A stretch of DNA of 64,000 nucleotides from Marsupella aquatica (lineage: Eukaryota > Plantae > Marchantiophyta): positions 26,963,972 through 27,027,971 of the forward strand of contig OZ316891.1 of NCBI GenBank assembly GCA_973895155.1. The letters run 5' to 3'. Position 1 is the first letter of the stretch, and every line of letters starts with the position of its first letter. Of the stretch, positions 36,676-64,000 are shown in pieces. Made by a program: the position numbers and the translations under genes. The notes under the pieces are model-generated. The model was not told the origin of the DNA and did not search any database. It saw only the letters and a program-made list of their open reading frames with translations.

Positions 36676-36800
36676 TAGTTGTACCTAACCACATAGTTGT
36701 ACCTAATCACGTAGTTGTACCTAACCACATAGTTGTACCTAATCACGTAGTTGTACCTAACCACGTAGTTGTACCAACCCACGTTGTTGTACCAACCACG
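36676..36800. repeat. 18-bp tandem array within the Copia LTR (also at ~42745-42869)
   Basis: About 7 copies of TAGTTGTACCTAA(C/T)CAC(A/G). Confidence 0.93.
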
Positions 36801-37069
36801 TCATACCTAACCTAGACGTAAGAGTAAATACCCAACAATCTTCCCCTTGACTCTGGTCTAGGGGAGAGTAATACTGCCAATGTATATGATCCCTCAGCGG
36901 GAAGTTCTGGACAAAAACCAAACCGGTTTCCCTCTCTAACTAGAGCAAACCATAAGTAAGCCGTAGCCTAATACATAGGAATGAGGAAGAGCATATATCA
37001 GTAATTACAATGAATGTTAAGAAAACTCTACATGTGATGCAATTGCAAAACCTGCAATACGTCACGGTG

Positions 37070-40000: not shown

Positions 40001-41330
40001 GATGACCATTTGAATCCAACACACCGAGTGAAATCAGATTCTTACGCATGCCAGGTACATACCTGACTCCGGACACTGTGCGCACAGCGCCATCAAACAT
40101 TTGAATCTTCACAGACCCAATTCCCTCAATTTGACAGGAGTGATCATTTCCCATCAGAATTGAACCGTTTGAAACAGAGTAAGAACTGAAAAACTCACGA
40201 ATGTAACAAATATGAAAAGAGCAAGCACAATCAAGAATCCACACATCATCTGCTCTCCTAGATGACGTGCACAGGGCATACCCCCGGCTTCATAAAACAT
40301 ACTCATCATTGAGTAAATCAGCTTCTCCATCAGCCCTAGCCACATTTGCCGATGAAGTTTCCGCTGCCTTTCCCTTATAGTCTCGCTTGAAGTGTCCAAC
40401 TTGGTTGCACTTCCAACATGTCACCTGCCTCCTCTGAGGGGATTTACCCTTGGACTTAGATCTGGATTTAGATCTAAACTGGGTTCTACGGTCCCCAGTT
40501 GGTCGCTGCATACTCCTCCCACGGTTAACATTGAGGGCAGCACCAGATGATGAAGGCTGTGACGTGATGTGCATCTTCTGCTGAAGATCATCACTAAGCA
40601 GAGAACTTACCACGTCATTGTATGAAATGGTATCCCTATCACAATGCAACAACACTCGTGATAGGGACTGGTAAGATGGAGGCAATGAACTAAGAAGCTG
40701 CAGAGCCTTCGTCTCATCATTCAAAGTCTCCCCAAGGTTTTCCAAGTCAACGACCATGTCGTTGAAAGCATCCACATGGTCTTGCAACTTCGTACCAGAT
40801 TCCTTCATCCTGAAACTCATCAGTTTGTAGGAAGTGTAGAGCCGGTTCGACAACTCCTTGCGGTGATATTTGCTCTGCAATTCCGCAAACAAGGACATGC
40901 AATCCTTATGTGCACCCAACTGCTTGATGATGGGAGGCATGAGATAGAGTGTAACACACCACACTCCCTGCTCCTGCATGCGGTCCCATTGTTTCTCATC
41001 AACATCGTCTTCACGAGGGCTCAGCAGTTGGCCCATCACTGACGCATAAAGCACTCCCTTCACCTGCTTCTCCCATAGCAAGTAGTCAGAGCGCCCATCA
41101 TACTTTGTCACTTCATACTTGGGTCCCCCAAGCTTGAAAGTCCCCATCTTCTTCTTTGGCACTACCGTGAGCTCCAGTAGTAGTACTGCTTCCTCCACCA
41201 CACGCCGCACCGGTGATGGTATCGGTGTCACGTGCTCTTCCTCCTGCTCCTCTCTCTGCCCGTGAAACCTCCACGGTGATCCTCGTGCTTCAAGTTCCAC
41301 GTCTTCGAAAAACTCCTCCGAATCACTCAT
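37070..41330 (-). pseudogene. Copia Gag-PR-INT-RT-RNase H polyprotein, disabled
   Basis: Gag knuckle CWKCNQVGHFKRDY (last Cys lost), protease WILDCACSFHI, LWHSRLGH/CEHC, integrase IHSDVWGP...RSDNGGEY...NGVAER, RT KARLVAKGF...LYVDDML, RNase H GYVDSD...STTEAEY. In-frame stops at 40290, 39972 and ~39911; frameshifts at ~37860 and ~37180. Confidence 0.95.
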
Positions 41331-42906
41331 ATGAGAAAATCACAAAAAATGTTGTTTTTCACAACTTCTCAAAAAACTCGAAACTCAACACCGCCGCGTA
41401 GCCCACAAAGCTAGGAGTCCAATACTGAAAACCGAAATCAAAATCGAAATTTGACGGAAAAGTTATTCAAATTTTGGTCGAGGTGGGTAAAACCTTGGGA
41501 AACTCCCCCGTTTTGACCACCTCAGGGAATAACCGAAATACCAAGTACAACCCATTGTCAGAATTGCGATGTGATTGGTGCGCTGCGTTGCCAACTTCAA
41601 TGGCTACGACCTCGCCGAAAAATAACCAAAAAAGTTACCGTTCGGCGAATGAAATCTTTGTCGGACGGTCAAAAAATAGCTCTCTGGTTTTTTGGAATAT
41701 TCTATGACCCTTGTACAGGCCCTGTGGGAATTTTGGAAGAACAATTGAGGGGCTGACATGTGTCCTCGAACCCCCAAAACCCCCCTACCACCCTTCGTCG
41801 TCGAAATCTGGTCGCGTGCGCAGAAAATACACACGGCAGAATGTACCCCTCGACACCAAACGCAAGATATCTCACTCAGGTTTTAACGAAATCAAGATCC
41901 GATTTCAGATTTGGAAACTAGACTCCGAGGCAATGAAGATCGATATAAGAAGCACCCAAAACGAGGAAAGAACGAGGGAGAAAAAAATTGGTAAAGATGA
42001 CAGATTTCTCTCAATTGCCATAGCCAATTTCGAATTAGATTTTCAAAGAGAAAAAAATGGTACCTTGTCAACAACGAATGTTGATCAATTGCACTTGGTG
42101 CCGTCACCAAGTCCAACAAGGTAATTGATTTTGCTTAGCCTTCCTCTTTGCATCAAAGAGCCAATCCTGGACTCAAAAACAATCGTCTTGCCTCAATCTC
42201 TCCGTTGAGTCAAAACACTTGACGCTTCTCCCTCCGAGTCGATTGCCAACTTTCTTCACAAAATCCAGAACGACGAAAACTTAGATCTCTCTGCACCACG
42301 AGCTCCGTTCAACAATTTCTTCACACCGTTAGAAAGCTCTTGCCCTGATCTATCCGTTGAGCCCATAAACTCCAAGTTCCATGCGATGGAACTCTGGAAA
42401 ATCCACCAACACTCAACGCTGGAAAAACCGTCATGAAATCCCGTCACGAACACACGTCACCTCCCAAGCATGCTCTGATACCAATTGTTGAGCATAGACG
42501 ACGATCGCAACGGCAAGCCCATGAACCATCCAACGCACAATAGTCGACACAAGAGATACGTGGTTCACCTCCTTGAGGCTACGTCCACGGGAACACACAA
42601 GAGAGCTTTACTGAACTCTAAGCCCGTCGGCTATACCGAGTCTCCACAGTGTAAGCTCTCCCTATCTCTCAAGTGGCTCCATAACAATGAGCCTTGGTTC
42701 TTCATCTCCAAGCACACATGCCTCTTATGATATAGTGTGCAACTTAGTTGTACCTAACCACATAGTTGTACCTAATCACGTAGTTGTACCTAACCACATA
42801 GTTGTACCTAATCACGTAGTTGTACCTAACCACGTAGTTGTACCAACCCACGTTGTTGTACCAACCACGTCATACCTAACCTAGACATAAGAGTAAATAC
42901 CCAACA

Positions 42907-44319
42907 CACCTCACTGATCCTAGGAAGACTGATAATGAAGAGGTGGAATCGGAGGAATGCATTAGGATTCTTAAAGACATTGCTCTTCGATCAAAAGGGG
43001 GATGGGAGAAAAAGCTATACACTACTGTGGAATGGAATCTGCCGGAGGCTGCCATGAACGTCAAGAAACTTTACAACTGTGCACTTCTTTGCTACTTTAC
43101 GGGCAAAACCCCGCTCCTATCTGTCTTTCGGGAGTGGGTCGAAGATGTGATGATGAGCCATGGGAATTGGCCGGTCCTGCAAGTCAAATATGTGGGAAAA
43201 AGTTTTTACATGATAGTCTTTGAACACCCAGACCATCGGGACCTGGCGCTGCAATTGGCCCCCTGGTTTATGGAACGCCGCTTTGTGTACACATTTGCGT
43301 GGGACCCATCATTTGACGTGAAAAGTGAGAGCTTCACTAAACTCCCAGTATGGATCGAAATTCCGTTCCGTGCCCTTACACTCGAAGGGTGCAGGCGCAA
43401 GATAGCTAGCTCGCTGGGACAACTGCTATACTATATTCAAGGAGACCAATTTAGCTCGTATCCCCACGATCGCGCCTGCATCTTATGGGACACAGATAAA
43501 GAAGTACCGGCCAGTGTGAAAGTAAGAATCCGTGAGGACATTGTAGTCTGGCAACCTATTACATTTCGCAACATCCCCTACCACTACTACAAATGTAATC
43601 AAAAGGGACACCTGGCGCAGAATTGCAGTGTGGAGATGAAGGCTACAGAAAGTGTGCTAGAAGATAATGAACAGCTTGATGAGAAGGATGACGAAAGGCA
43701 CTCAGAGGCGGATCCTGAGGAAGTAATTTGGGCTAGGGACAACGCGGCTGTGAGAGCGGCTTTTGGTGCTGCTGCGGTGCCCCACACTGAGGTGCCCTGC
43801 TCGGTGGAAGGTGAAATTGCGCAGGTTGAGATGGTTATGTGCCACCCCTTGCCTTTGGGGGAAAAGATTCTGTCTTATGAGATGATCCAACAAAGGAGCA
43901 AAGCTACACCAACCCCTCCTGCACCTAGAGAGCAGCACCGGACTGCTGTGATTCCACTACTGGAGGGATGTGGGAACCGGCTGGCCGAACTTGCCCCCCT
44001 TCCGCTTAGTACGAGCCTTTGTGTCCATTCTGGTCCCGGCCCTCCCCTGGTGGTGCGGGCACCTCAGAGTTGCTCCCCTGTGACACACCTGCGAGTTGGG
44101 ACTGCTAAACACGATGTTGTTATGAGTGAGATGGGAGAGGAAGGAACATTCTCATTTCATGATGACTCTGACGCGGAGATGTTTGAATACGAGGCATACA
44201 TTTCGAACAACAAACTAAAGGCTCGTGCTCGGAAACAGGAACTGCGTACACCTCCCACTGAGAAGAATGACAAAGCTAAAGGAATAGCTAAGAAACAACG
44301 ATCACTTAAATTCTTATGA
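42907..44319 (+). CDS. LINE ORF1 (DUF4283-like region plus degenerate zinc knuckle), C-terminal part
   Basis: APWFMERRFVYTFAWDPSF...LPVWIEIP...RACI...YYKCNQKGHLAQNC. In frame with 36058-36416 across the Copia TSD (EEEH|LTDPRK). Confidence 0.85.
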   Translation, partial: HLTDPRKTDNEEVESEECIRILKDIALRSKGGWEKKLYTTVEWNLPEAAMNVKKLYNCALLCYFTGKTPLLSVFREWVEDVMMSHGNWPVLQVKYVGKSFYMIVFEHPDHRDLALQLAPWFMERRFVYTFAWDPSFDVKSESFTKLPVWIEIPFRALTLEGCRRKIASSLGQLLYYIQGDQFSSYPHDRACILWDTDKEVPASVKVRIREDIVVWQPITFRNIPYHYYKCNQKGHLAQNCSVEMKATESVLEDNEQLDEKDDERHSEADPEEVIWARDNAAVRAAFGAAAVPHTEVPCSVEGEIAQVEMVMCHPLPLGEKILSYEMIQQRSKATPTPPAPREQHRTAVIPLLEGCGNRLAELAPLPLSTSLCVHSGPGPPLVVRAPQSCSPVTHLRVGTAKHDVVMSEMGEEGTFSFHDDSDAEMFEYEAYISNNKLKARARKQELRTPPTEKNDKAKGIAKKQRSLKFL

Positions 44320-44626
44320 GGCTTCATGTCTGATGCAGGAGGCACAAAAGGACTGTTGAGTGACTCCAGGGACAAAGCGACACTCACGCTGCTGATAGGG
44401 AATAAGGGTGATCATTCGCGTTTGACCCCCCTGCTCCCCTTATGATTTGTGGCGTTGTATCTGACTCCCAGATGGGGGTTGCTCCTTCTCTGACGGCAAG
44501 CAGATCGAGGAGCGCTGGGGTCAGCGGGCTGTCCCCGGGAGGATGCATCCGCCTTTAGACCATTGGGGGGGAGGGGGGCCTCTGAGGTGATATGCGACAT
44601 ATTCTATATCATCTTCATTACAAGGA

Positions 44627-46587
44627 ATGGTGGAGCTGTATAGAATTGCTTCATGGAATGTATGCGGACTTTGTGACACGAACAGGAAACACGTAGTCAA
44701 AAATTGGGTGCAATCTTTAAAATCACCTCTAGGAATTCTGGCACTTCAAGAGGTCAAGGCGGACCAATTTCGACTAGAAGTGGCGATGAGAGCGATTCTC
44801 CCTGATTACCAATGCTTCTCATCGGAGCCTGATGAAGGGAGAGGCGGCACAGCACTGCTCGTTCATCCTGCTCTGAAGGTTGTAGGATCGGGCACACTGG
44901 ACCTGGGCAGGGCTGTCTGGGTTATTGTAGAGGGGGAATCAGGGAGATTTGGGGTTGCTTGCATCTACGCTCCTAACTCACCTCGACTAAGGGCGTTGAT
45001 GTGGAACGATCTCAAGATGGGGCTACCACAGGAAAAGTGGATCATTTGCGGAGACTTCAATATGACAGAATGCCGAAGTGACTCTACTGGGGCTTCCCCT
45101 TTAATTTGTGGCAAAGAAGCAGAATTCTAGAGATTTCTAAAGATGCGATTTGACCTGGTGGATGTGTGGGATGTTAAAGGCGCAGCAGCGGGACCTATGT
45201 TTACGTGGAGGAGAACTCGGGACGGGGAGTGGATGCAGTCCCGGCTGGACAAATTCTATGTAAGTGAACAAGGATGGTGGATTGGAGAAATTAAGGAGCT
45301 TATCCATGATGGGGGATCTGCCTTGTCGGATCATGACCCTGTGATTTTGATAATGCGACTCTCTGAGAGGCCTCTGGAGGAAGGGAGAGGTCACTTCAGA
45401 TTTTTCATGGCTAACCCGGCTCTTCTGAGGAGAGTGGAGGACGTGCGGCTATTGGAGGCGGCTTGGATGCAGGATCGGGAAAGATTTGTGGACCCGCACA
45501 TCCGGTTTGCACGGGCTAGGAGCAGGCTAAGGAGGACCTACATTAAATTCCAAGCCAAGCCCAAAGAATCTGAGGAGGAGATGGCATTCTTAAGGGCGCG
45601 TTTGAGGACTCTTAAGACGTCTATTCTTGACTCACATTTGGAGAGCCATATGGTGGAATACATGGAAGCAGAAGACTCACTACATGCAGCAGAGATAGAA
45701 GAAGCTCATAGGGGTCGGCGTCTAGCGCGGGTTAAGTGGCTCGGGGAAGGAGATGAATCCACCAGATTCTTTTTCGCCACTGTGAAGGCAAAGCGCTCTA
45801 GGGAGACCATGTCCTCTCTGACAAAGAGTGACGGTAGCTCTATCACGGACCCCCAAAAAATTATAGAAGAAGTGGAAACCTTCTGTGCAACACTCTACTC
45901 GCCCCCAGACTATCCCAGGCTGAGAAAGCGGAGCAATTACTTGCCCGGGAGCGGCTTCTACGTCACACTCACTTTGCATTATCAGCCTTAGAAATTGAGA
46001 AGATGGATGCACTTCCAACTGCGCTGGAGGTGAAGGAGGTCTTATGGCTCCTCCCCAAGGACAAGTCCCCTAGACCAGATGGATTGACAGCAGAAGTGTA
46101 TAGGACGTGCTGGGAGTTCCTTGGCGAGGATCTTGTGGAGATGATCCAGGCCTTTTGGCTCATGGGAGAGCTTGACCCTGACATCTGCAATGGAATCATC
46201 AAGCTCATCCCTAAGAAACCTGAGAAGTGCTATATGAAAGACTGGCACCCACTCACAATGCTGAACACGGTCTATAAGGGGTTTAATTCTCTCCCGAATG
46301 ACGACTTGGTTGGGATTACTGCTCTTTGTGGGAGACTTGGCTTGAGATCAATCGGGGATGGCTGGTCTAGAGAGGACGATGGTTGGAGAGACCTGCCACT
46401 AAGATGGCAGACAATGAGAGGTTTCACATCTGAGCACAGGAGACTGGCTCTTGAATTCTTAGAGCTCCTTTGGAGCTCAAGTGCTTGCAGGTTTGACTGC
46501 TTCCTCTATGCCAAACAGTGGCGGTGGGTAGACAAGCCTGAGAATTTGAAGGACTTCAAGATTGCTAATTGCCGCGTCTACCAATTT
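44627..46587 (+). pseudogene. LINE ORF2: APE endonuclease and start of RT, followed by an internal deletion
   Basis: IASWNVCGL, LALQEVK, IYAPN, ICGDFN, SRLDKFY, LSDHDPV, EGDESTRFFF, KSPRPDG, WHPLTMLNTVYK, then a jump to the post-RT sequence GFNSLP. Stop at 45130 and a frameshift near 45915. Confidence 0.9.
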
Positions 46588-49500
46588 ATTTATTTATTTA
46601 TTTTATTTTTTTAATTAAAATTTTGATTTTATTCCGCATGAACCCCACGGATAGGGGGGACCAGCAGGCCAAACGGCAGCAGAAGCCACAAAGGGCAAAA
46701 GAGTGATAGGAGTCCAAGATAGTCAAGGACATCAGATCTCACAGATGTTGAATACTAGTATGAATCAAGTTTTCACTGTCACTCAGACAGTTGTATCTAA
46801 TCAACTCAAGAGTAAAGCAGAATCAAAATAGTGCCAGTGCAAGGGGACGAATGTCTTGTCAGGAGTATGGTCCTAAGGCTCATCAGTCAACCAAGCCTGC
46901 AAGGGTAAAAAGAGTGGGGGAAGTCAAGCAACTCGGAATGCCGTAATAAGATCAAGGGCAGGCATAAGAGCGAAAATTCCTAATCCTAAAGATATAAAGT
47001 AGGCCTATGATCAAGGACACAAAGGAAGCTAAGTAAACCATTAACTAAGAGCTTCTGTGGCCTAAAAAGGATCAAAGTGCCGGGTGTCCTCCTGCAGCAC
47101 CGCCATCCAGGATGGATTCAATCCTCCTAACCCCACTCCTGAGAATTCGGATGCGTTCTGTCTCTATCAGTCCCTTAGCACCTGAGAGGCGTCGATGTTT
47201 GCGGCTTAACAAAGAAGTAGACAGCACCGAAGTGGATGTGGTAACCGCATTCAAGTGGTCCAAAATCTCATAGATCACCAGCAATTGATCAAAGATTCTG
47301 TGTCGAGTTTTGTCAAAGGTTTGAGCATTACGGGCTAGCCAAATGCACCACAGGATCTGGTAAACCGTGTAAATCCGAAGAGAGTGAATAGGCAGTTTCC
47401 CTGCAGCGGAAAAAATTAGAGTGAATAAACTTGGTGATCCATCGCAGAGTGCACCCTCCATCCATCCGTGGACCTCCAGCCAACAGCAACAAGCATGACG
47501 GCATGAAAAGAAAATGTGAGGAATAGTTTCAATCGTCCCAGCACATAAGCCACAGCAGCCATCCGACTTGCCAATCCGTAGAGCACGGGAGCCAGAGAAC
47601 AAGCCTTGCGCAATAATCCGCCCAAGAAAGACCTTAGCACGGGTAGAGAGGTCAGAAGCCCACACAGTGTTCCACACTCTATTCCAATCCTCCTCCGGTA
47701 AATTTTCCCCCCAGATCCGGTTCAGCTGGGCGGAGTTAGTGCCTTTTAGGCGAAGCAACTCATAAGCACGTGCATTCGTTAAGTCAAAACGATTCATTCT
47801 CTCCTCCCGATCCAACCAGCGCCACATGCAGGTACGAGAAGCAGTAGCAGAAGCATCTCCCTCACAGGGAGAGCCACGGATCACACCAGCAAGAGAGAGG
47901 CATAAAGTCCTGTTGGGAAGCGTAAGGCCTCTCAGACGAGGTAGACGTAATTCAACATTTTTCCAAGTGCTATCAATTGTAGACCAAAAGTCCTGAATTC
48001 TCCTGATACCCAGAGAACCAAACGTTCTTGTTAGCAGCACAATATCAATCTCCGGTAAATTGTAGAATCCTTGTAGACAGCGGATAGTATCCTCAAATCC
48101 CCAGTGGCCAGGGATATGATCAGCCTCAGTAGGACAGAAAATCAAATTTGATCTCATTCTCTCCCAGGCACTCCACAACTGATTCGTATACGTAAGTCTC
48201 CCAAAGCTACGGGGGGTACAGAGTAGCAACTTGTCAGCCATAGAGTAAGAGCTTCGACGTATAGCCTTGTAGTTCCGCCATTTGGTAAGTCGAAGGTTTT
48301 CCGCGAACATGCAAGCCCATTCAGATTCAGGATGGTCCAAAGCGCCAGTAAACCACTTACACAGAAGGGCATCAGAGTGACTCTTGAAGTCCTTTAGGCC
48401 AAGTCCACCGTCAGATTTGGGTCGAGTCATCTTATCCCAAGCCACAAGTGGGATGCGTCTTCCACCCAGCGGGTTCGAACCCCACAGAAAAATTCTGTTT
48501 AAAGCAATCAGCTTTTTAGTCAAAGCAGCGGGAGAGAGTAGGAACATCATGTGATAGACCGGGATGGCCTGAAGCACATGCTTGATTAACAGTAGACGAC
48601 CTGTGAAGGAAAGAAAGCGAGTGGACCAGGATGCAAGACGTGCACTAATCCGGTCTAAGCAAAAGCAATGTAGTTGCTTCTCAGAAAGATTGGATCCAAA
48701 AGGTCCACCCAAATATCTGTGCACAGTGCCAGCAGGGCTGATTGTACAGCCAGTGTCCTGTAGCCAGCCAGGGATCTCTTCAAGTGCCAGGGGGATGATG
48801 GTTGATTTAGCCAGGTTGAGTTTAGCACCCGTAGCACACTCATAGCAGGTAATAGTGTTTCTGGCTTGCTCAAAAGCTATCACATCAGCAGGGATAAAGA
48901 GGCCCAGATCGTCAGCAAACAACCTAAAACAGAGGGTGAGGAAGGGGAGATTTTGAGTCCCTGCAAACGACCAGCAACAATCTCCGCCTGGCAGAAATCC
49001 ATTAGGGGCTGAGTAGAGATAGCAAATAGAAGTGGGGAGAGGGGGCACCCCTGCCGGACTCCTCTGCACATGTGAATATCAGCAGACCAAAGACCATTGA
49101 CAAGAACTTTAGAGCAAGAGTTGCTTAAGAGGGACCGTACCAAGAGAATGAAATGTGAACTAAGACCTAGAAGGTTCATAGTCTCCCAGATGTAGAGATG
49201 GTCAACCCTATCAAAAGCTTTCTCAAAGTCAAGTTGCAAAAAGAGGGATGGGGTCTGCGTATATTCAATCCAGTCGCTTGCCAACCAAGTAAGCGAGATA
49301 TTCTCCAAAATGTGTCGACCGGGAATGAAACCGGTCTGCTGTGGACTAATCATACGGGGCAGCAGCACCATCAGTCGTCGAGCAAGTAGCTTAGCCAAAA
49401 TCTTGTAGGTAATGGTAAGCATCGTCAGCGGCCTCCAGTCGCTCAGGCGCCGCTTGTCAGTCTTTTTGGGGATAAAGCGGATCACTCCATCCTTGATGCC

Positions 49501-49836
49501 ATAAGAAATATGACCAGTCCTCCAAAAGGCACAGATCATATCATAGAAATCAGCTTTCACAAAATCCCAAGAGGCCCTCAAGACCTCGGCAGTCATACCA
49601 TCCACTCCAGGCGCCTTGTCATTGGGTAGCATGAGCAGAGTATCATGTACCTCCTGTAAGGTAGGTAACATATCTAGACTTCTGTTCTCAGTGGCAGACG
49701 GGGAGAAATGAGTGTGTTCGCAAAACCTCCGACGAGCAGATCTCATCTCCATAAGTTCCACAGCACTTTGTTCAGGTGGAGAGTACAGTGATTCACAGAA
49801 TGTCTGAACCTCCTTGATAATCATATTTTCATCCCT
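46588..49836 (-). mobile_element. 5'-truncated L1-type LINE inserted antisense in the host LINE; RT and zinc finger with one frameshift
   Basis: (TTTA)n/poly-T tail at ~46584-46612. ORFs 48880-49896 (KAPGVDG, WRPLTML, LDFEKAFDRV, GVRQGCPLSP) and 47072-49069 (FADD, YLG, GGLG, CGLCAGTIETIPHIFFSC). Likely short TSD AATTT. Confidence 0.93.
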
Positions 49837-49841
49837 AATTT

Positions 49842-50474
49842 TTGAGGCCACAAATCTCAGTTTTCTCTCGGTGGAACCACATTTGGTCTGTGGCACGCTC
49901 TGAGAGCGACTGGGGCTCTGTCTGGTCTCAGCTTTGGAGTTCTGACTTGCCGGCTAGAGGCAAGACGTTTATCTGGTGCATTATTGTAGGTGGCCTTTTT
50001 ACTGGTGCGCGGGCACTACATTTGGAGATGAGCAACGGGGACTGTAAGCTCTGCTGTGGCACGGTGGAGACCATCCCTCACCTATTCATCTTCTACGTCC
50101 ATGCTGATTGCTGTTGGCGGTTATGTCAATCATTCCTGTGTGTACTCTGTTTGCCGTTTGGGCAAGGTTTGCTGCCTTTGCTAGATGCTGCTTTCAGGAA
50201 AGACCCTGCCCATGTTGCAAAGCTTTTTATCTTGTATCAGATCTTATGGTCTATTTGGCTTGGCCGGAACACGCACATGTTCCAGGCTGGTGGCAGTAGA
50301 GTCTTTGACTTGGGCCTGGTTCTCTCGGAGACGGCTGATAACCTTGATGCGGCTAGCCGGGGGCTTCCTCCGGGCTGGAAAGGTACCCGCATCCTTAGAG
50401 CCAAAACATGGATTGATGCCCTTCGTAGGAACTGGATACGACACGGCTGCGGCCGTATCACATCTGGCTTATGA
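49842..50474 (+). pseudogene. C-terminal zinc-finger part of the host LINE ORF2
   Basis: WSQLWSSDLPARGKTFIW...CKLCCGTVETIPHLF...YQILWSIWLGRN; continues RVYQF from 46587. Confidence 0.9.
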
Positions 50475-51072
50475 GCTGCTTGCCGTAGGGGCTGCTTTCA
50501 GTGCTTCTCTTATTGTATTGGGCCTTTTCACACTCTTGCTTTGGCCCCCATGTGCTTGTTTTCACATTGTTGCTTTGGTCCCCTTGTTGATTGGGGTCCT
50601 GGTTTGTGGCCTGTTTGGCTGTCTGTTTGCCCTGGTCATGGGGCTTTTCGCGGCCGCCATTATCTTTATAAAAAATCAAGGAAGAAGCAACAAATGTGTG
50701 GTAGAGTGGTTAGATTGTTAAATGATAATTTAATGACTTGAATTTGTTCCCGTGAGAGTGCTTCTCCAAAGAATTGATGTCAATCAACAAACAAAGTTAC
50801 TGATTAAAGAAATGTAGGGAAAATGGACTAGTAAGAATATCCTTTCAATTGGTCAATGGGGTAAGTTGAGGTAGATTGACAATCCCCAACAGATCAATAG
50901 GACCCTGGCTTTTTAAGATTCAGAATACAACAGAGCTTAAACCATAGCCAAATTCAGAATGAACATTCTACATTAATTAGAAATTGGAATGAATATCATG
51001 AATAGGTAGCAATCCAGGAAATTCTTTCAGGTCAATAAAGTATGATAGTTGTCACACCATTCTAGATGCTAT

Positions 51073-52834
51073 TGTAGTATATAGTGCTAGTTGAGTATGT
51101 ATGTTTTGTATGTGTGCTATTGGAGTTGATAGGGTTTGATTAGGTTTGTGTGGGAGAGTAGTTCTCCCTTGTGAGGCATCAAAAGGTCATCTTTTGATGT
51201 TGAGCCTTGGAGAGAGAGGAGCTCGAGTGTGGCTATGGTGGTTGTGAGCTCCGCTTGTGTAACGTGGAATCCTTGAGTAGTGCAAGGTGCGTTGGCTTGA
51301 CATACGTGTGTGATCGGATTGGTGCGGATCGATGGGGTATTGTTGACCGGAATTGTTGTGTTGATTTCTGAGAAGATTACATCGAAAGATCTAAGCTTCA
51401 AACTTTGTTGTGCGGATTGTGCAAACATAAGTTCATTCAAGATTTGATTGACGGTTTGTGGTACCTCGGATCGTGTTGTGTTGCTTGATTGGATCGTTGG
51501 TAGCTCGATCGTTTGAGAAAATCTGAAGTGGGGATCCAAGGTCTGATCTTCATTTTTGTTCAAACATTCTACTGCCGTGTTGTGACCGGTTTTTGGACAT
51601 AGCATGTTGGCAATTTGAAGGAGGCGTCGGTGGTGCGGATCAAAGTTGGCGAGAGGTGCTTGGGCTTCTGATCAGCGTTGTGCACTCAATTTGCTGTTTT
51701 ACGAAGAGACTGAGTCTTGATGTTGCAAAGTTGAGTCAATTAAGGTACTGCATGTTTGACTGTGCATTTTTTGTGACAAAACAGAGGTGAAAATATTGCG
51801 GGATTGACACGATTGTGCTATGCTGACAAACTGTATGTTGCAAAGTCTGATTGCCTCAGGTGTTCTTGTGAAGAAAGTGACTGTCGATAGTCGTGTATGT
51901 TGCCAAATTTGAGGCGTGGTCCATTGCGGAAGGGTTTGGCTAGGCGCTACGGTTAGGGTGGACAGTGTTGTACTACATTTTTGTGAGGGAAATTGGGACT
52001 CAAATGTTGTGAGATTGAACCGTTGTTGTTTTTGACCGACTGTACGCTGCCGTAGCCAATGTGCAATTTTGTGTGAAGAAAGCGGAGAAGTTGAGTTTGA
52101 ATGTTGCAAAATCTGAACCTAGTTTTGGCATAGCAAAGCGTTGCGAACGTGAAGGGCTCACTCTTTGGCTCATCTCGGTGTTTCGAGGCTTCAAGGCAAC
52201 TAATGGTAACTCGGGATGAGGGGCGGAGCACGAGTGGGCGGGCCAGCAAGCTGGTATGTGAAGAATAGTTTGCAAGGTGGTGAATTTGAAGCAGCCGATT
52301 TGGTGCATAACACAAGTGAGAGGTCACTTTCCCACACGCTGAACTATGTGGTTCTTATGAGCTTGTGTGTACACACACTCCTTTCTACATTGTTGTTAAA
52401 GAAATGAATACTTAGGAATTTTATACACATTCTCATTTGTTTATAGTGTCATTCTGGGTCAAATCATAAGGTCTTTCAAGGTTTTTGATGCTTCTAAATC
52501 TATCTAGATGCATGGATTGAATCAATTTTGCATGGGTTCTTAGCAATGACATTGAACATTGAGAGGCCTATTATGAAGGCCATATATTGAACATTATGAA
52601 CATTGTTTGATCGATGTGTGATCACTCTTGGTGTGGGGAGTTATTGTTTATCTCTTTTTGTTGATTGGATCCTCTCCACACATGTTTCCTGTTTATGCAC
52701 CATGTTAGTTTGGTGTGGGCGCTTGATTCCATAGGAGTGATTTGAGTTTGCAACTAGACATTCTAGTTGTGCTGCATATTTCTCTTCTGGCAATGTTGGA
52801 GTGATGTCCAACACATCATGGTGAGTGCTTGTGG
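51073..52834 (+). mobile_element. Candidate 5' LTR and PBS of the methyltransferase-bearing retroelement
   Basis: GT-rich non-coding stretch ending ACATCA (52818) and immediately followed by TGGTGAGTGCTTGTGG, about 270 bp upstream of Gag. The left boundary is a guess (TG at 51073 or 51195) and no second LTR is in the window. Confidence 0.4.
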
Positions 52835-55739: not shown

Positions 55740-56665
55740 AGGGTATTGGCTTGTTGGATCTATTTGGTGTGATTAGCACTGGATTGGCTAGACATCACTT
55801 CTTGGCGGGGCCGTCAAGATGACCAGATGTCCGTACGGTACGGACACCAAATTTTGTCAAATTTTTTCTCAATTTTTATGGACACTGATGATCCTCGCTA
55901 CCCCTTATCAGCATGCACTACCTGTTGATATTTCATTGCTAGGGGCGGATCATTTGCATCATTTTGGCCCCATTAATTTGGTGATTGCTGGTTGGCCATG
56001 TCAGAGCCAATCTAGAGCTGGCATTGGTCATGGACTTCATGATCCACGCTCTGCATTGTTTTGGGAGATGTTATGGGTGCTATGTCATCTCCAGCTACAT
56101 TAGACATAATCTCCAACATACATTTTGGAGAATGTGCCATTGTTAGTTGATGATCATTGTTGGATTGTTGCTAGTGTTCACCAAGTGAGGTCTTGGATTG
56201 GACCTGTTGTGTTATTGGATGTTGCATGTGTGGGTTCTCGTGCACATCATCCACGCTTGTGGTGGACTAATTTGATCCCATGTGAGGTGCTAAAGTGCGC
56301 ATTTGACAACATTCCACGCTCAATAGCCTTAGTGGAGGATGATATTTTGGACCCAGGACGTCGTGCACAGGGTGTGACCCAACCTGACAGACCTCCATTG
56401 GCAATGGTCAATGTCGTTGGGCGTCCATGTTGTGGATTACCCACTCTTTTAAGTCACTCTGCTTCATATGCATTCAAAGCAGGTGGCTCTGGACTTGTGT
56501 GGGACACAGCTCTCTAGCAGTTAGTGGAACCTACTGTTGATGAGAGGGAGCGTGCTATGGGATTTTTGACAGGCACCACTGCAATTGCCTTGGTGTCAGA
56601 GAGTTCACGTGGCTAGGTCCTTGGTCAAGCAATGGATTTGAATTGCTTGACTTGGATTATCAGCT
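55740..56665 (+). pseudogene. C5 cytosine DNA methyltransferase domain embedded in the retroelement polyprotein
   Basis: Ordered motifs: I LLDLFGVISTGL (55751); IV LVIAGWPCQ (PC at 55996-56001) followed by SRAG...GLHDPRSALF; VI YILENV (ENV at 56128); VIII GSRAHHPRLWW; IX EPTVDERERAMGF (~56527); X VLGQAMDL (56617). Contains in-frame stops. Confidence 0.92.
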
Positions 56666-56875
56666 TGGGAGTAGCTGAATAGTTGCGGATGCGCTCTGCT
56701 GGTGTTACTAATCGTCCATTAGTGAACTTGCGGTCCATTAAGACAGTGTTGACCACAACTGGGGGCAAGCAAATAGTCCATGGACCTATGGCAGGATTGG
56801 CCAAGGCTGGACAGATTGTTGAGCAGGAAAGGACTGCTCAATCTATTGCCAAATAGCAATCATCGGCTATCTCTT

Positions 56876-57000
56876 CTTTTTTAATTTTTAATTTTTTAAT
56901 TTTTCATTTATTCCGCTTGAACCCCACGGAGAGGGAATCAGCAGGCCCACATGCAAAAGAGGCCCTTAGAGGCAAAAGAGAACAAGGCAGACCGGTCAAA
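56876..57000 (-). mobile_element. LINE 3' end (poly-A tail) of the same family as the LINE at 46588
   Basis: Poly-T run then TTTATTCCGCTTGAACCCCACGGAGAGGG...CAGCAGGCC, matching TTTATTCCGCATGAACCCCACGGATAGGG...CAGCAGGCC at ~46628. Confidence 0.85.
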
Positions 57001-57200
57001 AGTCTATTTGAGCAAATGAAAGTTCCCTACCAACAGTGCATCTTGGTGCCTTATCTACAGTCAAAATAGGTGAAAACTTTGAGGTTTAAAGAGTTTACTA
57101 GATCTCTTCACTATTCACTGTCCAGTCCGTAGGTCTATTTCAACTTCTAACAGTCACTACTCGTCTTACTTGCTCCCTTAAAAGTAGGAAGTGCTGACAG

Positions 57201-57913
57201 GGTTGAAGAAGCATGTGTCATTCTTTGAGTTTATTCTAAAGCGAACAAAACAGGAAGAACCAAAGCGACATTGGACAACTCTCATCAATTATTGGAATGA
57301 CATTGTAGATACTCTACAGGGTGAGCAGGTGCAATATGAACCTGAAGGTGCACACAACTTGGAATACGGGTTTTGGCCTTTATCAATATGGAGAGAGCAC
57401 GTTCCACCAGAATATCAAAATGTGGCATGTGAGTTGGAGGCAACAGTGGATTATGTGGGACCAGCAAAAGATAAACCTCCTGAGAGTTTTAACCCTAGGG
57501 TTGATGTTGTGAAGGGCTGTTATGTGTTGGTACGGCCGGACGACTCAAACCTGGATGATTATCCCATCCATATGGGGTTAGTTGTTATAGATGTGGTAGA
57601 AGGACCAGTGAATGAACAAAACCTTCTTACTCATGTATGTGGCGTTGAGTGGTTTAGACCATTTATGGCAAAGAAGCAACATGGTCAATCAGACTGGCAG
57701 CCAAGAGAGCGGTGGGCAGATTCTTGGGATAAGAAATGGGAACGTGATCCAACTCCAATATACAAGGAAGCTGAGACAATAGATGTTTCCTCTGCCTTGT
57801 GGTGTTTCAAAGCACGCAAAGGACCAGTGACAGGGCTGGTAGGAATTCCAAAGAATGTTGCTGCCAAGGCAAGAGACTATCTCTTGACATGCATAGCAAG
57901 TGACAAATCCTAG
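57201..57913 (+). CDS. Uninterrupted terminal exon of an unknown Trp-rich protein, probably the C-terminus of a DNA-transposon protein
   Basis: 240-codon open frame preceded by the acceptor-like GCTGACAG. Motifs GFWP..W, FNPRVDV..G.YVLVRP, VEWFRP and W..SW..KW. It sits between LINE fragments. Confidence 0.5.
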
Positions 57914-58008
57914 ACAATAATGAAGCATGTAGTTTAGCATACAGTTTAAAAGGCAACTCAGAATAGTAGTAGCCAGAGAACTCAAGTTTAGACAAGTCTT
58001 ATCGTCTA

Positions 58009-58543
58009 AGTTAGTTAGTTGGTTAGTTTATTTAAGATATAATATTAGTTAGTGGGGCCTTAGTTTGGTGATATTAAGGCATGATATTATTGACATTCAA
58101 ATGAATGTCCAGTAGACATTGTAATATACAACAATCCTATTAATAAATAATAATTATAGTTACACCTTCAAGTGAACTCAACTTTCAATGATTTCTGATT
58201 TTATATGGTTCCATGCCTGATTGAGTCAAAGCAATAGAAACTAACTAATTAAAGGGTGATACTATGATTGTAGGTCACGCACCCTGGTGCGTGTCAATCT
58301 TTTTTTGTATTCAACCCTATAGTAATTAAATAGACAAGTTAGTTAGTTAGTTGGTTAGTTTATTTAAGATATAATATTAGTTAGACAGTGGGGCCTTAGT
58401 TTGGTGATATTAAGGCATGATATTATTGACATTCAAATGAATGTCCACTTAAGTAGACATTGTAATATACAACAATCCTATTAATTGTTGTAAAGGGTGG
58501 TCAATCTTTTTTGTATTCAACCCTATAGTAATTAAATAGACAA
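58009..58543. repeat. Interleaved direct duplications (~135 bp and ~44 bp)
   Basis: 58009-58144 recurs at ~58341-58485 with small indels. TCAATCTTTTTTGTATTCAACCCTATAGTAATTAAATAGACAA occurs at ~58294 and 58501. Confidence 0.9.
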
Positions 58544-59391
58544 TTGAAACAATGAATGACAGTTTAATTAAGGATTTGTGCATGGATCAAGAGGTACTTG
58601 ATGTCATTTAGTGATGCATTGTTATAAAGATGTAGTTATAAAGATCTTGCAACAAAACATTTGAAGTTTTTGACTATCCCACCAAATGTTGAAGAGGTTG
58701 ATCATTCATTAACTTATAATATTTAGATAAAATTGGAATTAATCTAATACTTCAGTATTCCTTAAATTGGGGTTTTACGTTCTGTTTCTATATGCTTCAA
58801 TGCTACAGTTAATCGTTTTTGTTTCTTGTCAGAGAGGGAAGTAGTCCCTACCAGCACAACCGTGATGTGATCCATGCTCTCTAAAATTACTTGCATCGGA
58901 TCAAGAAGACCTTAGCTTTTGTTGAGAGGTCTGAAGACCACATCCCCTTCCACATTGAGCTCCATTCAGTCTCATTAAGTGTCACACTCCAAATGCGATT
59001 CAGCCTTTCCCAATCATAACCTTTAGATCGTAGTGTGACGCCGCTGGTATTGAGTAATTCGGTCTAACCGCACTTAGCACGCGCGTTAGGGGTATCTTAG
59101 GCTGTTATTATTAGCATAACGACAATACTTAGGTAGCCATTATAAGTAGGAAATCCTTAGTCAATAAAGGGAATCCATGTTTGGGCTGCCAGCAGGTCGC
59201 CATTCGCATGCCCGGGTTGTGAGCGTGTAATGGGTCCTTTTTCCCCCTCCCTCGGGTCTGTATAACGAACTCTGGGGGCGGCCACTCACACGAGCTGACC
59301 CGGACTGGAGAAGGGGCCGGTACACTGTGAGCATGAAAGGCTCGACCTATAAGTGACGAGGAGGCGTCGGGCGATCGACGAACTCTCAGGG

Positions 59392-59398
59392 TATAAAA
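59392..59398 (+). promoter_or_regulatory. TATA box typical of an LTR promoter
   Basis: TATAAAA followed by GGGGG and a pyrimidine-rich leader, 100 bp before ATG 59498. Confidence 0.55.
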
Positions 59399-59497
59399 GG
59401 GGGCCGATCCTTTGCAGTGCACCAAGCTCTCCAGTCCACGCGCCAGCTTCGATCCCAACTCTCTCGCTTTTCCTTAGTCACCTGCTATCTCCTCTGA

Positions 59498-62046
59498 ATG
59501 TTGCACACGATCCTTTCCAGTTCGGCCATACAATTCTGGACTCAGTTCCTGTCTATTGGAGGACACTTGGCCGACTCATTGAAACATGCCAACCCACGCC
59601 GTTCTGAGATCGAATGCGAATACGAGAGAGCCATCCGCCTAGCAGACCGCCACCACTATCTCCTTAACTTTGAGTACCCGTCCCAGAGCAAGCTTTACCG
59701 ACCCGAGGAGGTATCAGGGTACTTTTTTGACGGAAGCAAATACATCGGCTTCTGGGAGGCACTGCTTCGCCTTTCGGACGAGGTCTTCAATATTCCGGGC
59801 ACGATCGACTTACAGAGGCACCACTTTGACCACATCAATGGCGAGTTCAACACTACCCGGTCGATAGGACCATCTCCACTTGCGTCGAAGAACCTCCACC
59901 GGCACTTGCAAAACTTCATGGCAACTCTACCATCAACGACCAGTGCCGGCCAACCCGTACCCGCACCTACACCTCCTCGGCCTCAGCCAAGCCGGTCCCC
60001 GCCACCGGTTCCACCACCTCTCCGAGTACGATCCATGGTGAATGCGGTACATATCAGCTCCAAAGACGAGGAGACTCACCCTCCTCTGAATCAATGACCA
60101 CGGGGTACGAACAACCCCACACCACCCCAGCAAGCCCGAGGGGACAACACGGTAACGCTAGCGGCCCCAACACCAATACTCACGGCAATCGTGCTACCAC
60201 CACCTGACCGAGAAGATGGAGAGATGTCCCCTTCTTCTAGTCACCCCGGGAATCAGTCTCGAGGTAGGGAGCCCGTAGCCGTATCCGGGTTGCCTTTGGC
60301 CACGGTTGCGGTAGCCAAGTTGACCATGCATCGCATGGGGGACAACGTTCACAAGAACATCCTCCACCCCAAGCATGCATGCTATCTGAAGACCCAGGGG
60401 TTTGAGCACCTCGCCTCCCTCCCTTGGAACGGGAGCAGGTATTACGGGCAGGATATGATGGAGTTCATTCAGAACTTCGACGAGGCCCGTCAACAAACCC
60501 AAGCACACGGGAGAGTGATGTGTCTCGATGAGGCACGTCTGAAGATGATTTTTGGCTTACCCGAGGGGATAAACTAGGTAGAGTCGCGGGCTCCCGGGGG
60601 CAAGGGAGCTAAATACCAGTCATCTAGCTTCCCGACCGAAGGGGTAGTGGACAATGGGTTCTTAATGAGGACGTGCCTCATCCTGGAGGTAGCAGAACGC
60701 CTAGAGTTCCAGCGGTATGCCCTCCACATGATGGAACCTAGAGGAGAAATATCGGCCGCTCAGGTCATCCAGGTGGAGAACTATCGGCCCAGGAAGTGGG
60801 CGTCCTTCTTTTTCAAGAAGTTCCACGAGGAGATGGAGCGGAGAAGGAAGACTTTGTACCTTGGTGGGAGGGCGTACTTTGCTAGCCACGTCAAAATCAT
60901 CCTCGAGTGGTACGCTCATTTCGACCGCCAAAGCCTCCCGCGGCTCAATGAGCCCAAGCTAACCCTGCCAAAATGGGTGTTCCCAGCCCAAGTAAGGCGA
61001 CGGCAGCCCAAGGCCCAAAGTCTGCAACTGCAAGTCCTGCTACCCCGGCCTCGCCGCTGCCGCCCAGCCAGGCATACCCATTGACGTCATCGCGACCTTA
61101 GACGCGATCAATCGGGACAATGTCGTGGAAGCCGGGCCGGATGAAGCCATACCCGAAGCAGATACCACGGTGGCTAGGGAGATTCCACCACCCCCCCATG
61201 GTGGCATAGGAGAACCACCCACCTCTAGTGGAACCAGCCCCTTCGACCGACTTACCTCAAGGGTTGGATATGTCCACTCCTACTCCCGCACGGGTTGAAG
61301 TCTGCCCGTGCCCGAATTGGGAGGGACACAGTCTAGACCATCCGAAACTCTTTGCGTCGGGCACATTTCTGAACGGGTTGTTGGGAGATTTCTCGCAACA
61401 GATCTCTCGAGACACCGGGGAATACATGGCCCGGAGGGTGGCCTACTTCTTCAACCAGAAGTTGGTTGCGGCAGTAAGGGCAGGACATGCGCAGGCAGAG
61501 ACCGCGCAGAGAATAGAGCAATATCGGGTTGAGTCTGCCTACCTGAAGGACAAAGTGGCAACCCTAGAGGCTGAACTCCAGCAACTACGGCCTCAGGTAA
61601 TGGCCACAAAGGACCAGGTCACCGAAGCTAGAGCCCAAGCAGCGTTGGCAGTACAGGCCGGGCTCAAAAAGGATGCCGAGATTGCGCGGCTCCAAACCAA
61701 GATTGACGGTTTGCAGGGGCAAGCCGTCAGTTGGCAAAAGGATCTGGAGGAAGCTGACTGCAGGTCTCAGCGGGACACAGCTAAGATTGACGCTCTAAAG
61801 GCAGAGGTGGCACGGCTTCAAGGAGAAGCCACGAAACAGGCCTAGTTGGTGGACAAGCTGACGAGCGACACCCAGCAACTGGAGGAAGCATGCCAGGAGG
61901 CCGCGGAAGAGGCAGACGCGGCAAAGCGGGAAAACGAATCTCTGCTGGACCAGGGCCAGCTACTCAAGCAGGACGCCGACAGGCTCAGAAGGCAGCGGGA
62001 TAGCCGTTCCCACTCAGGCGGCTCTGGCAAGCGTGCCAGGCATTAG
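59498..62046 (+). pseudogene. ~850-codon ORF of unknown function: Pro-rich linkers, plant-transposon-protein/PMD-like core, C-terminal coiled coil
   Basis: ORFs 59498, 60191 and 60647 share one frame separated by single stops; 61228 and 61846 share another. Core MMEFIQNFD...GRVMCLDEARLKMIFGLPEG; heptad-rich LKDKVATLEAELQQL...KIDALKAEVARLQ. Confidence 0.7.
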
Positions 62047-64000
62047 CGGCGGAGTAGGATTAGAGTAGAGTTAGGAATAGCTTAATTAGGCTATAGGGAC
62101 AAGCAACTGCCCTAAGTAGCACAGCACTACCATGCTGTACAACCTGCATAGATTAGGATCTTCTAATAAGACAAGTCGTTTTCCGGCCTGACAGCCAACT
62201 TAGTTAGGACCTTAGCTAGCGAATCTTCGGGCGCAAGGGCACTCCGTTCCTCGGCCCTTAGTATTTAGTGCACCCCTCGGTAGAGGCAGGGGGTTTTTAG
62301 TCTCAGTGTTGGACATCCGCAATATGTGCGGGGAGTCCCGACCTCTAGGAGTGAAAGAGTACCGAGGGGAGGGTATGGGACTAAGCTTGTTGGGCGAGCG
62401 CGGAGCCGGGCTCCGTTGTAGTGTACACCCTTGGCTTTGGACCTGTTCATTCCCGAGCTTTCGGGTCCACTAAGTGTATGCATATGTCTCCTATGTAGTA
62501 AAATCCTTCCCCATTATTTCCTTCGTGTAAATCGAGATTGTATGCTTGCGCGTGTATGTATGTGTGAATCTTGTGTATAGGTGCCAACGCTCGGCCGAAC
62601 GCACTACCCAAGTCGGGCACGGGGTGCAGCTTGCGGGTAGTGGTTGCGAGCCTGGGTTGAGTACCCATATCATCGAATCCGGATCGAAGGCAGACAACAC
62701 GAAGGCTTAGAAGCCCGTAAGCCGGGGTCGATCCTGTTATCGATTAAGGTACGTTTCGGCGGTGGAACACAAACCATACCTAGGAGGTGTCCGTATATAA
62801 CCATAGGCGCACTTAGCGCTAGTTTACGTGAGTTAGGTGCATTTCGAGCATCCCTCCCTGCCCAAACACTCATTTTGACGAAGGATGTGCCTGTCTAAGC
62901 CGAAGCCCAGGTTAAGGCCTAGGCTGACGACGTGACACGCAGCATCTCGTACACCCTCAGATTTGTTGTGGCAAATCTCCTCATCTCAGTCTTGGTGTCA
63001 TTCCATCTCCAAAGTCGAGCATCAACACCAGATTCCCTGCCTCCAACAGTAGAACAACAGATCACATTGTATAGAGCAGTACATTGGACACGGCCGACAG
63101 AGGTGAGTCCTCTCATTCTTTGCAATATCCTGGAGATATCTTTCAAGTCCTGGTTCTCAGTAGACCATAGATCTTTTACTTTCCTCATTCCTAAACTATC
63201 AAAAGTTCTAATGATTTCCATTGAGCATTCTTCTGGTAGTTCATAGAACCCCTGCATACTCCTTACCAAATCTTCAAAACTCCAATGCCCAGGTATTGTG
63301 CCCTTGCCTGGGAAAAAGATCAGTTGCTCTCTAGCCATCTTCCATGCATTCCATAGTTTCCCTGTATAGACAAGTTTCCCAAAGTGCCTGGGAGTGCTCA
63401 ATAGTATTTTGTCACTCAAGGAGTACCAGCTTCTTCTCACCGTCTTATAGTACGTTGCGCCATTTGGTTAACCTGAGATTCTCAGCATACATTTGAGTCC
63501 ACTTAGAGCAAGGGTCATCTAATGCTCCAGTGAACCACTTGCATAGCAAAGAGTCAGAATGGCTCCTTGAGTCCAAGCTCGCCCTCCAGCTTTGGTCTAG
63601 TCATCTTCTCCCATGCCACTAGAGGAATCCTTCTTCCCCCTTGCAGATTAGTTCCCCATAAGAATGTCCTATTAAGTTTCATCAACTTCTTAGCTAGTAC
63701 CTTAGAGGATCAAATAAACATCATATGGTAGATAGGGATTGCATGTAAAACATGTTTAATCAGCATCAGCCTTCCTATGAAGGATAGAAATTGTGACGAC
63801 CAGGATATATGACAGTCGGGCACCTATTCTGTCTAGGCATAAATTATGTAATTGTGTCTCTAGAATTTCTACTCCAAAGGGAGCACCCAGATATTTTTGT
63901 ACCTCTCCCTTTTCGCTAATTTTGCATCCAGTGTCCCTGAGGCAATCAGGGATCTCATCCATAGTGAAGGGGATAATGATTGATTTTTTCAAATTCAATT

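Follow-up and report, generated by a model that had tools for sequence, protein, structure and literature searches.

The window analyzed here is a 64,000-nucleotide stretch of DNA from Marsupella aquatica (assembly GCA_973895155.1, contig OZ316891.1, positions 26,963,972 to 27,027,971). Near its right-hand end, a long interspersed nuclear element (LINE) is interrupted by a plus-strand unit that carries a decayed protein-coding gene. This unit, at 59034 to 62937, is one exact insertion of 3904 bp that starts with TGTGACG and ends with CGTGACA. Deleting the element together with one of the flanking 5-mers leaves an empty site with an open minus-strand frame reading ...RVYEMLRSKGYDWERL... (in a fuller stretch, ...TTNLRVYEMLRSKGYDWERLNRIW...). 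Across the junction, the rejoined LINE frame aligns without a gap to a different LINE copy (47618 to 48271, minus strand), with 108 of 218 residues identical (50%; E 2e-65), and also aligns to a third LINE copy at 27386 to 27565. A gap-free alignment of the rejoined frame to a paralogous LINE means that the borders of the element are exact, as a preliminary description of this DNA, made from its sequence, had claimed.

That description had also assigned the insertion TG...CA ends and a 5-bp target-site duplication. The ends stand as described; a duplication is present (CGTAG to the left, CGCAG to the right) and is called imperfect because the flanking 5-mers agree at only 4 of 5 positions. The sole difference is C/T, in a CAG/CTG context. 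The termini form a short inverted repeat, with TGTGACGCCG pairing at 8 of 10 positions with TGTCACGTCG, the reverse complement of the other end. In composition, the element has a GC content of 0.52 to 0.59, compared to 0.32 to 0.42 in the flanks, and an observed/expected CpG ratio of 0.74 to 0.91, compared to 0.25 to 0.34. CpG depletion of the flanks is strong, at 0.34 (56033 to 59033) and 0.25 (62938 to 64000). The higher GC and CpG levels therefore indicate that the element is much younger than its host LINE or has been hit less by methylation-driven decay.

The open reading frame (ORF) within the unit runs from 59498 to 62046, a length of 2549 nt that equals 65% of the element and about 850 codons (Table 1). 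Before the final stop at 62044 to 62046, the frame is broken by three in-frame stops (TGA at 60095 to 60097, TAG at 60575 to 60577, and TAG at 61843 to 61845) and by at least two frameshifts between about 61084 and 61210, so the window copy is dead. The positions of the frame, the stops, and the unit's only TATA box (59392) agree with the earlier account of a decayed sense ORF of about 850 codons, right after a TATA box and filling about 65% of the unit, and the long coiled coil of that account was found at about 61486 to 62019. This coiled-coil tail gave many weak matches to coiled-coil Pfam families, which were taken as noise. All three stops (caa TGA, aac TAG, and gcc TAG), as well as the mismatch in the target-site duplication, are compatible with C-to-T changes.

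Table 1. Features of the inserted unit and its target site, in window coordinates
Feature	Position	Strand	Remarks
Inserted unit	59034..62937	+	TGTGACG...CGTGACA; removal restores LINE ORF
Left target-site duplication, CGTAG	59029..59033	.	4/5 match to right copy
Right target-site duplication, CGCAG	62938..62942	.	4/5 match to left copy
5' terminal inverted repeat arm, TGTGACGCCG	59034..59043	+	8/10 vs reverse complement of 62928-62937
3' terminal inverted repeat arm, CGACGTGACA	62928..62937	+	First and last 10 bases compared
Downstream half of interrupted LINE ORF (SKGYDWERLNRIW...)	58887..59033	-	Frame, empty site, LINE alignment
Upstream half of interrupted LINE ORF (...RVYEMLR)	62938..63467	-	Frame, empty site, LINE alignment
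Upstream cluster of 6 TTAG-core motifs (CTTAG-like)	59073..59161	+	5' of TATA box; candidate cis element
TATA box, TATAAAAG (TATAAA at 59392)	59392..59399	+	~100 nt upstream of ORF ATG
ORF part 1, 528 codons	59498..61084	+	N-terminal conserved region, proline-rich linker, core domain
Conserved N-terminal region (FW.QF ... FFDGSK ... EALLRL ... F.IPG)	59534..59836	+	P0039 alignment; P0011 also matches
Core domain, 224 aa, ...LKMIFGLPEG..., predicted VANC21-like (DUF1985/PMD-like) fold	60326..60997	+	AlphaFold2, VIA match
Zone of two reading-frame changes	61085..61209	+	Frames 59498.., 60996..61298, 61210..; linker poorly conserved
ORF part 2, 278 codons	61210..62046	+	Coiled coil ~61486-62019; C-terminal GKRAR 62026-62040
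Downstream cluster of 10 TTAG-core motifs	62059..62301	+	Directly 3' of stop codon; candidate cis element
AATAAG	62165..62170	+	Only poly(A)-signal-like hexamer 3' of ORF on plus strand; putative function

A search of 1.84 billion representative proteins with the first 528 codons of the window ORF (P0001, with X at the stops) returned 36 matches at E <= 1e-3, 13 of them at E <= 1e-10. The best matching cluster includes P0039, an intact 906-aa protein collinear with the window ORF. P0039 shares 32% identity with ORF part 1 over 533 columns (E 4e-75), spanning the N-terminal region, linker, and core, and 27% identity with the C-terminal coiled coil, and both proteins terminate in ...GKRAR. A similar N-terminal start is found in P0031, P0047, and P0048. 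Members of the family share an architecture of a conserved N-terminal region, a proline-rich linker, a core of about 220 aa, a second linker, a long coiled coil, and a basic tail. Those relatives with a species name come from the leafy liverwort Calypogeia fissa, where they are entered as "unnamed protein product"; they are located on several large contigs, and some of these copies are split into adjacent gene models. Other relatives derive from metagenomes and from contigs of 2.5 to 4.5 kb encoding 414 to 906 aa. Judged by these alignments, the ORF is not a chance frame and represents a real, conserved, so far unnamed family that is multicopy in C. fissa.

None of 22 scanned relatives had a Pfam domain at E <= 0.01, gag and pol included, apart from one subthreshold DUF6935 match. 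Fused forms of 1587 to 4530 aa were sought by a word-index protein search with A1, an alignment of 33 sequences (the window core and 32 relatives), and none were found, which is weak evidence. The same kind of search at near lengths gave three matches for A1, two of them already known, and no match for P0001. Among metagenome contigs, P0047 and P0046 produced pattern matches and no relative; among viral contigs, P0047 had one tblastn-positive stretch and no locus, and P0039 had none; and among prokaryote genome contigs, P0047 had no match. In C. fissa, a single 14.8-Mb contig carries two loci more than 90% identical (P0051/P0015 and P0052/P0050; CAM6101869/70 and CAM6101879/80), separated by about ten gene models. 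At both, the protein is divided between two models, one of 171 aa for the N-terminal part and one of 377 to 428 aa, which come in opposite order at the two loci. From accession order only, this suggests a pair of inverted copies with a common break; the reversed order of N- and C-terminal models led us to reject the pair as the two long terminal repeats (LTRs) of one element.

The core domain was modeled with AlphaFold2 (60326 to 60997, with 32 relatives as the alignment), giving a predicted local distance difference test score (pLDDT) of 88.9 and a predicted template modeling score of 0.84. When this model was compared by VIA-align to 48,161 representative chains, the only match at Z >= 5 was 9lnk_A, the structure of VANC21 with its target DNA (Z 8.1, root-mean-square deviation 4.1); rank 2 had a Z of 2.3. 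The alignment covered 202 of 224 residues, placing model residues 1 to 218 on chain residues 300 to 544 at 9% identity. A model of P0017 (pLDDT 78.2), a relative with 27% identity to the window core, again matched 9lnk_A (Z 7.5, root-mean-square deviation 4.2, 192 residues aligned), with the next-best chain at Z 2.2. Sequence identity of the core models to VANC21 was 9 to 11%. A language-model search, independent of the structure comparison and different in kind, agreed: in the ESM Atlas, 16 of 30 named matches to P0039 residues 325 to 535 were DUF1985 sets (0.90) and one was a PMD (plant mobile domain) cluster (0.90); for window 60290 to 60574, the cluster at rank 29 (0.87) had DUF1985 in 28% of its members. 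The core motif ...L..IFGLP.G also resembles what we take to be the LLGLP motif of PMD.

Several results speak against a relationship to VANC21. A best Z of 7 to 8 is common according to the VIA tool's own note, and the two models are not fully independent because both were built on the same 33-sequence alignment. No Pfam hidden Markov model (HMM), including PMD (PF10536) and DUF1985 (PF09331), matched pieces of the window at E <= 1. Among the 33 rows of A1, neither PF09331 nor PF10536 was found, and the closest Pfam match was a single Transposase_32 at E 0.059 (1 of 33), which is not significant. Foldseek found nothing at E < 3 for the window core model against the PDB, and VANC21 was absent at E <= 10 from a search of PDB sequences with the A1 profile, which returned only an unrelated LAP2 chain (E 1.3). 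The match carries weight because of the large gap to rank 2, the coverage of the whole domain, and its recurrence in a second model. From the predicted structure, the core probably descends from the VANC/PMD fold and works like it; because no sequence-profile match was detectable, we do not file it in the DUF1985 or PMD Pfam families. The preliminary description had likened the core to plant transposon accessory proteins and proposed structure prediction for 60300 to 60950; the single clear match of the modeled core to VANC21, and its VANC21/DUF1985/PMD-like predicted fold, bear out that likeness.

VANC proteins of Arabidopsis VANDAL transposons contain DUF1985 and DUF287; noncoding parts of their own elements have accumulated short motifs (YAGTATTAY for VANC21), to which the proteins bind, bringing about loss of DNA methylation at these sites (as described in PMC5735166). 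VANC, the host PMD protein MAIN, and PMD are reported to be structurally homologous (PMC13547354; bioRxiv 10.1101/2024.09.27.615353), and VANC, described as dicot specific, has been modeled to oligomerize via a coiled coil (PMC13547354). The PMD-C proteins MAIL1, MAIN, and MAIL2 are reported to act against Polycomb silencing and to be found at specific DNA motifs, with a fold resembling DUF1985 (bioRxiv 10.1101/2024.09.27.615353). By the account in PMC5418596, PMD is ubiquitous in angiosperms, PMD-A clades are encoded solely by angiosperm Gypsy retrotransposons, PMD-C genes are host genes captured by Mutator-like elements (MULEs), and whether PMD began in transposons or host genes is an open question. 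For Ogre, PMD is given as present in 57% of the extra ORFs (PMC6317226). An accessory protein with the VANC/PMD fold is thus to be expected of a large plant Ty3/gypsy element; the new points here are the divergence of the protein, its relatives in a liverwort, and its placement. With a predicted core fold of the VANC21/DUF1985/PMD kind, the earlier guess that the ORF protein acts against silencing gains a structural basis, and we infer that the protein may have had this function.

If the protein acts as VANC does, binding sites might be expected in the noncoding arms of the unit, which total 1355 nt. When k-mers of the arms were ranked against the ORF, CTTAG/CTAAG came first. CTTAG occurs 10 times in the arms, compared to 2.16 +/- 1.40 expected from 500 dinucleotide-preserving shuffles, none of which reached 10, a comparison that overstates significance because the motif was chosen after the k-mer ranking. 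Its density is 7.4 per kb in the arms, compared to 0.39 for the ORF and 0.98 for the remainder of the window; as a further point against a specific signal, TAG-containing words are disfavored within ORFs. By analogy with VANC, the CTTAG clusters are a lead to candidate protein-binding sites.

Searches of the element for parts of a complete retrotransposon were negative, as the preliminary description had anticipated in reporting no paired LTRs, primer-binding site (PBS), gag, or pol. No terminal direct repeat of at least 14 nt was detected within it by repeat search, and a Smith-Waterman alignment of its first 600 nt to its last 891 nt scored 20, at the chance level of 20.5 +/- 2.2 from 100 shuffles. 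No PBS of the initiator-tRNA-Met type was found inside the element at up to 2 mismatches, and its ORFs held no Pfam gag, pol, or integrase. The preliminary description had itself raised short terminal direct repeats, of the kind found in terminal-repeat retrotransposons in miniature (TRIMs) or large retrotransposon derivatives (LARDs), as the contrary case; the ends share nothing above chance. A TRIM, LARD, or other complete nonautonomous LTR element is ruled out by termini without shared direct repeats and by the lack of an initiator-tRNA-Met PBS. Blastn found no second copy of the element within the window, and all 46 tblastn matches of 50 family proteins to the window fell within the element. 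A search of 58500 to 63500 against Rfam gave no match at E <= 0.1, so there is no hammerhead ribozyme and the element is not a retrozyme. Also rejected was the ORF as a transposase or integrase, with neither a Pfam domain nor a fold match of that kind.

Elsewhere in the window, a Ty1/copia element occupies 36000 to 42500 on the minus strand, with gag at 40290 to 41339 (Retrotran_gag_2, zf-CCHC) and pol at 37141 to 39908 (gag_pre-integrs, rve, RVT_2). The sole exact initiator-tRNA-Met PBS of the window, TGGTATCAGAGC (42472 to 42483, minus strand), belongs to this copia element. Plant LINE copies lie head to head or nested between 42880 and 50500, with DUF4283 (42880 to 44319), Exo_endo_phos (44591 to 45130), and a zf-RVT piece (49839 to 50474) on the plus strand and RVT_1 plus zf-RVT (47072 to 49953) on the minus strand. 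An open frame with a MatE (MATE efflux transporter) domain (20190 to 20825, plus strand, E 2.7e-26) is probably a host-gene exon. Five open frames of 178 to 286 aa without a Pfam match at E <= 0.001 are probably more decayed transposon ORFs (35984 to 36661, 57188 to 57913, 45131 to 46614, and 50185 to 50721 on the plus strand, and 51117 to 51671 on the minus strand).

Taken as a whole, the locus is best explained as an exact 3.9-kb insertion with ends of the retroviral-integrase type, likely the solo LTR left by a large Ty3/gypsy-type retrotransposon; within it lies a decayed gene of a conserved family, the core of which has a predicted VANC21-like fold. We assign this reading a probability of about one-half. 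For the narrower claim that the unit is a solo LTR, the most economical reading of its structure, the odds are somewhat better than even. The TG...CA ends, short inverted repeat, 5-bp target-site duplication, size of several kilobases, and internal TATA and poly(A)-like signals all fit this reading, with TATAAA (59392) and AATAAG (62165) both inside the unit as putative promoter and poly(A) signal. A survey that allowed LTRs of up to 6 kb gives 5-bp duplications in 93.4% of 13,863 plant LTR elements (PMC6317226), and the rice elements Retrosat2 and RIRE8 are described with LTRs of more than 3.2 kb ending TGTCACACCC...GGGCGTGACA (PMC3485330).

Under the solo-LTR reading, full-length members of the family would carry the 3.9-kb unit at both ends of a core made up of PBS, gag, pol, and polypurine tract (PPT), and the single unit with its target duplication would be what remained after the LTRs had recombined unequally. 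With its promoter some 390 bp in from the 5' end, the LTR would have the ORF in its repeat and unique 5' regions (R/U5), as the first gene on the element RNA, and every LTR, solo copies included, would be a self-contained transcription unit. Such an arrangement could have originated if the PBS moved to the far side of a 5' ORF like ORF1 of Ogre, after which a single cycle of reverse transcription would give each LTR a copy of the ORF. The protein may enter the nucleus (through its C-terminal GKRAR), oligomerize via the coiled coil, and attach to short DNA motifs within elements of its own family, for which the CTTAG clusters of both arms are candidates. It could thereby counteract silencing by DNA methylation or Polycomb, as VANC and the PMD proteins MAIL1 and MAIN do. 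The full proposal, in which a bryophyte retrotransposon lineage has an LTR that is itself a TATA-ORF-poly(A) gene for a nuclear, coiled-coil, PMD/VANC-fold antisilencer that would bind CTTAG arrays in the LTR arms and free its own family from DNA-methylation or Polycomb silencing, is unlikely.

Several points weigh against the explanation as a solo LTR with a VANC-like gene. Within the window, no copy flanks gag-pol, and there is neither a second copy of the element nor any Ty3/gypsy pol. An R/U5 that spans about 3.5 kb would be unusual. The review PMC7264820 assigns the accessory ORFs of plant LTR elements to the internal region, in line with the preliminary description, which placed those of Athila/Tat/Ogre-type elements between the LTRs; the phrases "in the LTR," "within the LTR," and "inside the LTR" are absent from that review, and the literature searched, whose coverage excluded most subscription journals, yielded no account of a plant LTR with an accessory ORF inside it. 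The high CpG level of the element fits a young insertion and protection from methylation equally well.

The same structure could arise if the unit never had paired LTRs and was instead a stand-alone mobile unit, either nonautonomous or of a new class, with TG...CA ends and a 5-bp duplication, moved by an integrase-type (DDE) enzyme encoded elsewhere, with the VANC-like gene as its sole cargo. We consider this unlikely. It would agree with the lack of terminal repeats, PBS, or PPT in the unit, with relatives on contigs of 2.5 to 4.5 kb, about the size of the unit, with the searches having found no gag-pol fusions, and with VANC itself being DNA-transposon cargo (as described in PMC5735166). The small contigs, the lack of gag or pol, and the lack of fusions fit any discrete ORF-bearing unit, and do not distinguish an LTR from a stand-alone element; assemblers also turn LTRs into short contigs. 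Standard reverse transcription requires terminal redundancy in the unit that it copies, and to our knowledge no plant DNA transposon superfamily combines a 5-bp duplication, TG...CA ends, and an inverted repeat of only 10 imperfect bp, whereas a solo LTR covers every observed feature without a new mechanism. A MULE/VANDAL carrier was also rejected, given the 5-bp duplication, the TG...CA ends, and the lack of a transposase; VANDAL-type Mutator-like transposons make target-site duplications of about 9 bp.

Two further explanations were weighed. The unit could have been derived by deletion from an Ogre/Tat-like element; its ORF would then be a normal internal 5' accessory ORF left behind after loss of gag-pol and of the repeated parts of the LTRs. 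PMD-type extra ORFs do occur upstream of gag in Ogre (PMC6317226; PMC7264820), and a TATA box just 360 bp from the 5' end suits a short LTR, yet a complete 5' LTR and the end of a 3' LTR must share sequence. No similarity above chance and no direct repeat of at least 14 nt connects the two ends, no PBS follows the putative short LTR, and at least two precisely placed deletions would be required. Because its two ends share no sequence, we regard a deletion derivative as improbable. The ORF could also be a one-off capture, in which an ordinary LTR took up a gene of the host or of another transposon and the ORF does nothing for the element. Plant LTR elements are documented to capture genes (PMC7264820), and MULEs to have captured PMD-C host genes (PMC5418596), but here the ORF makes up 65% of the unit and is bracketed by the single TATA box and the single poly(A)-like signal of the unit, with no nested duplication or second pair of ends seen. 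The C. fissa relatives are also multicopy, and some are broken into adjacent models, as is often the case for transposon copies. A capture of this kind is very unlikely, and pooling it with any other explanation still leaves a small probability.

If the solo-LTR reading is correct, the consequences extend beyond this locus. Accessory ORFs are common in plant LTR retrotransposons, almost none have a known function, and those found described sit between the LTRs. In the present case, an LTR-like unit encloses a complete conserved gene, and the only structural relative of the gene product, VANC21, has demonstrated antisilencing activity. Solo LTRs of the family would be potential genes, beyond their role as promoters, and recombination to solo LTRs would scatter working antisilencing genes rather than inert scars. 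Early-diverging land plants would then have retrotransposons with antisilencing of the VANC/PMD kind, placing the PMD/DUF1985 fold in such elements before the origin of angiosperms and bearing on the transposon or host-gene origin of PMD raised in PMC5418596. A protein-plus-motif module could also serve epigenome work in liverworts. If the unit was never paired, it would represent a new kind of TG...CA element, which would be of greater import.

Several known systems stand close to the unit. A retroviral precedent is the sag gene of mouse mammary tumor virus (MMTV), which lies within the unique 3' region of the LTR, upstream of the LTR promoter. If the unit is an LTR, it resembles the MMTV arrangement in having a protein gene contained in, and carried by, each LTR, but the window ORF is 3' of the TATA box and the proteins are unrelated. 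With solo LTRs of large plant Ty3/gypsy elements (Ogre/Tat, and the Tekay-type Retrosat2 and RIRE8), the unit shares TG...CA termini, a short imperfect inverted repeat, a 5-bp duplication, and a length of several kilobases, and its 3' end, ...CGTGACA, matches the LTR end given for Retrosat2/RIRE8 (PMC3485330). Unlike those LTRs, it holds a complete gene of about 850 codons (65% of its length), whereas there ORF0/ORF1 sit between the LTRs, and it is known here as a single copy.

The gene product resembles the PMD (PF10536) extra ORFs of Ogre/Gypsy elements and the host proteins MAIN, MAIL1, and MAIL2 as a retrotransposon-associated accessory protein, PMD being reported as homologous in structure to DUF1985/VANC. 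It differs in having no PF10536 match at E <= 1; the Ogre ORF is internal, and PMD is reported to be ubiquitous in angiosperms (PMC5418596). Unlike VANC21, the core has no DUF1985 HMM match, its identity to that protein is only 9 to 11%, and its carrier has LTR-type ends and a 5-bp duplication rather than those of a MULE. In contrast to the dicot-specific VANC of PMC13547354, the named relatives of the window family are from a liverwort, and the family is known here from sequence and a predicted fold. Like VANC21 of Arabidopsis VANDAL21, a Mutator-like element (PDB 9lnk), the window protein is of a transposon-encoded type, with a matching predicted core fold and a coiled coil (modeled in VANC; PMC13547354). 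VANDAL21 also has short motifs clustered in its noncoding parts (PMC5735166), for which the candidate CTTAG clusters in the arms of the M. aquatica unit would be the counterpart.

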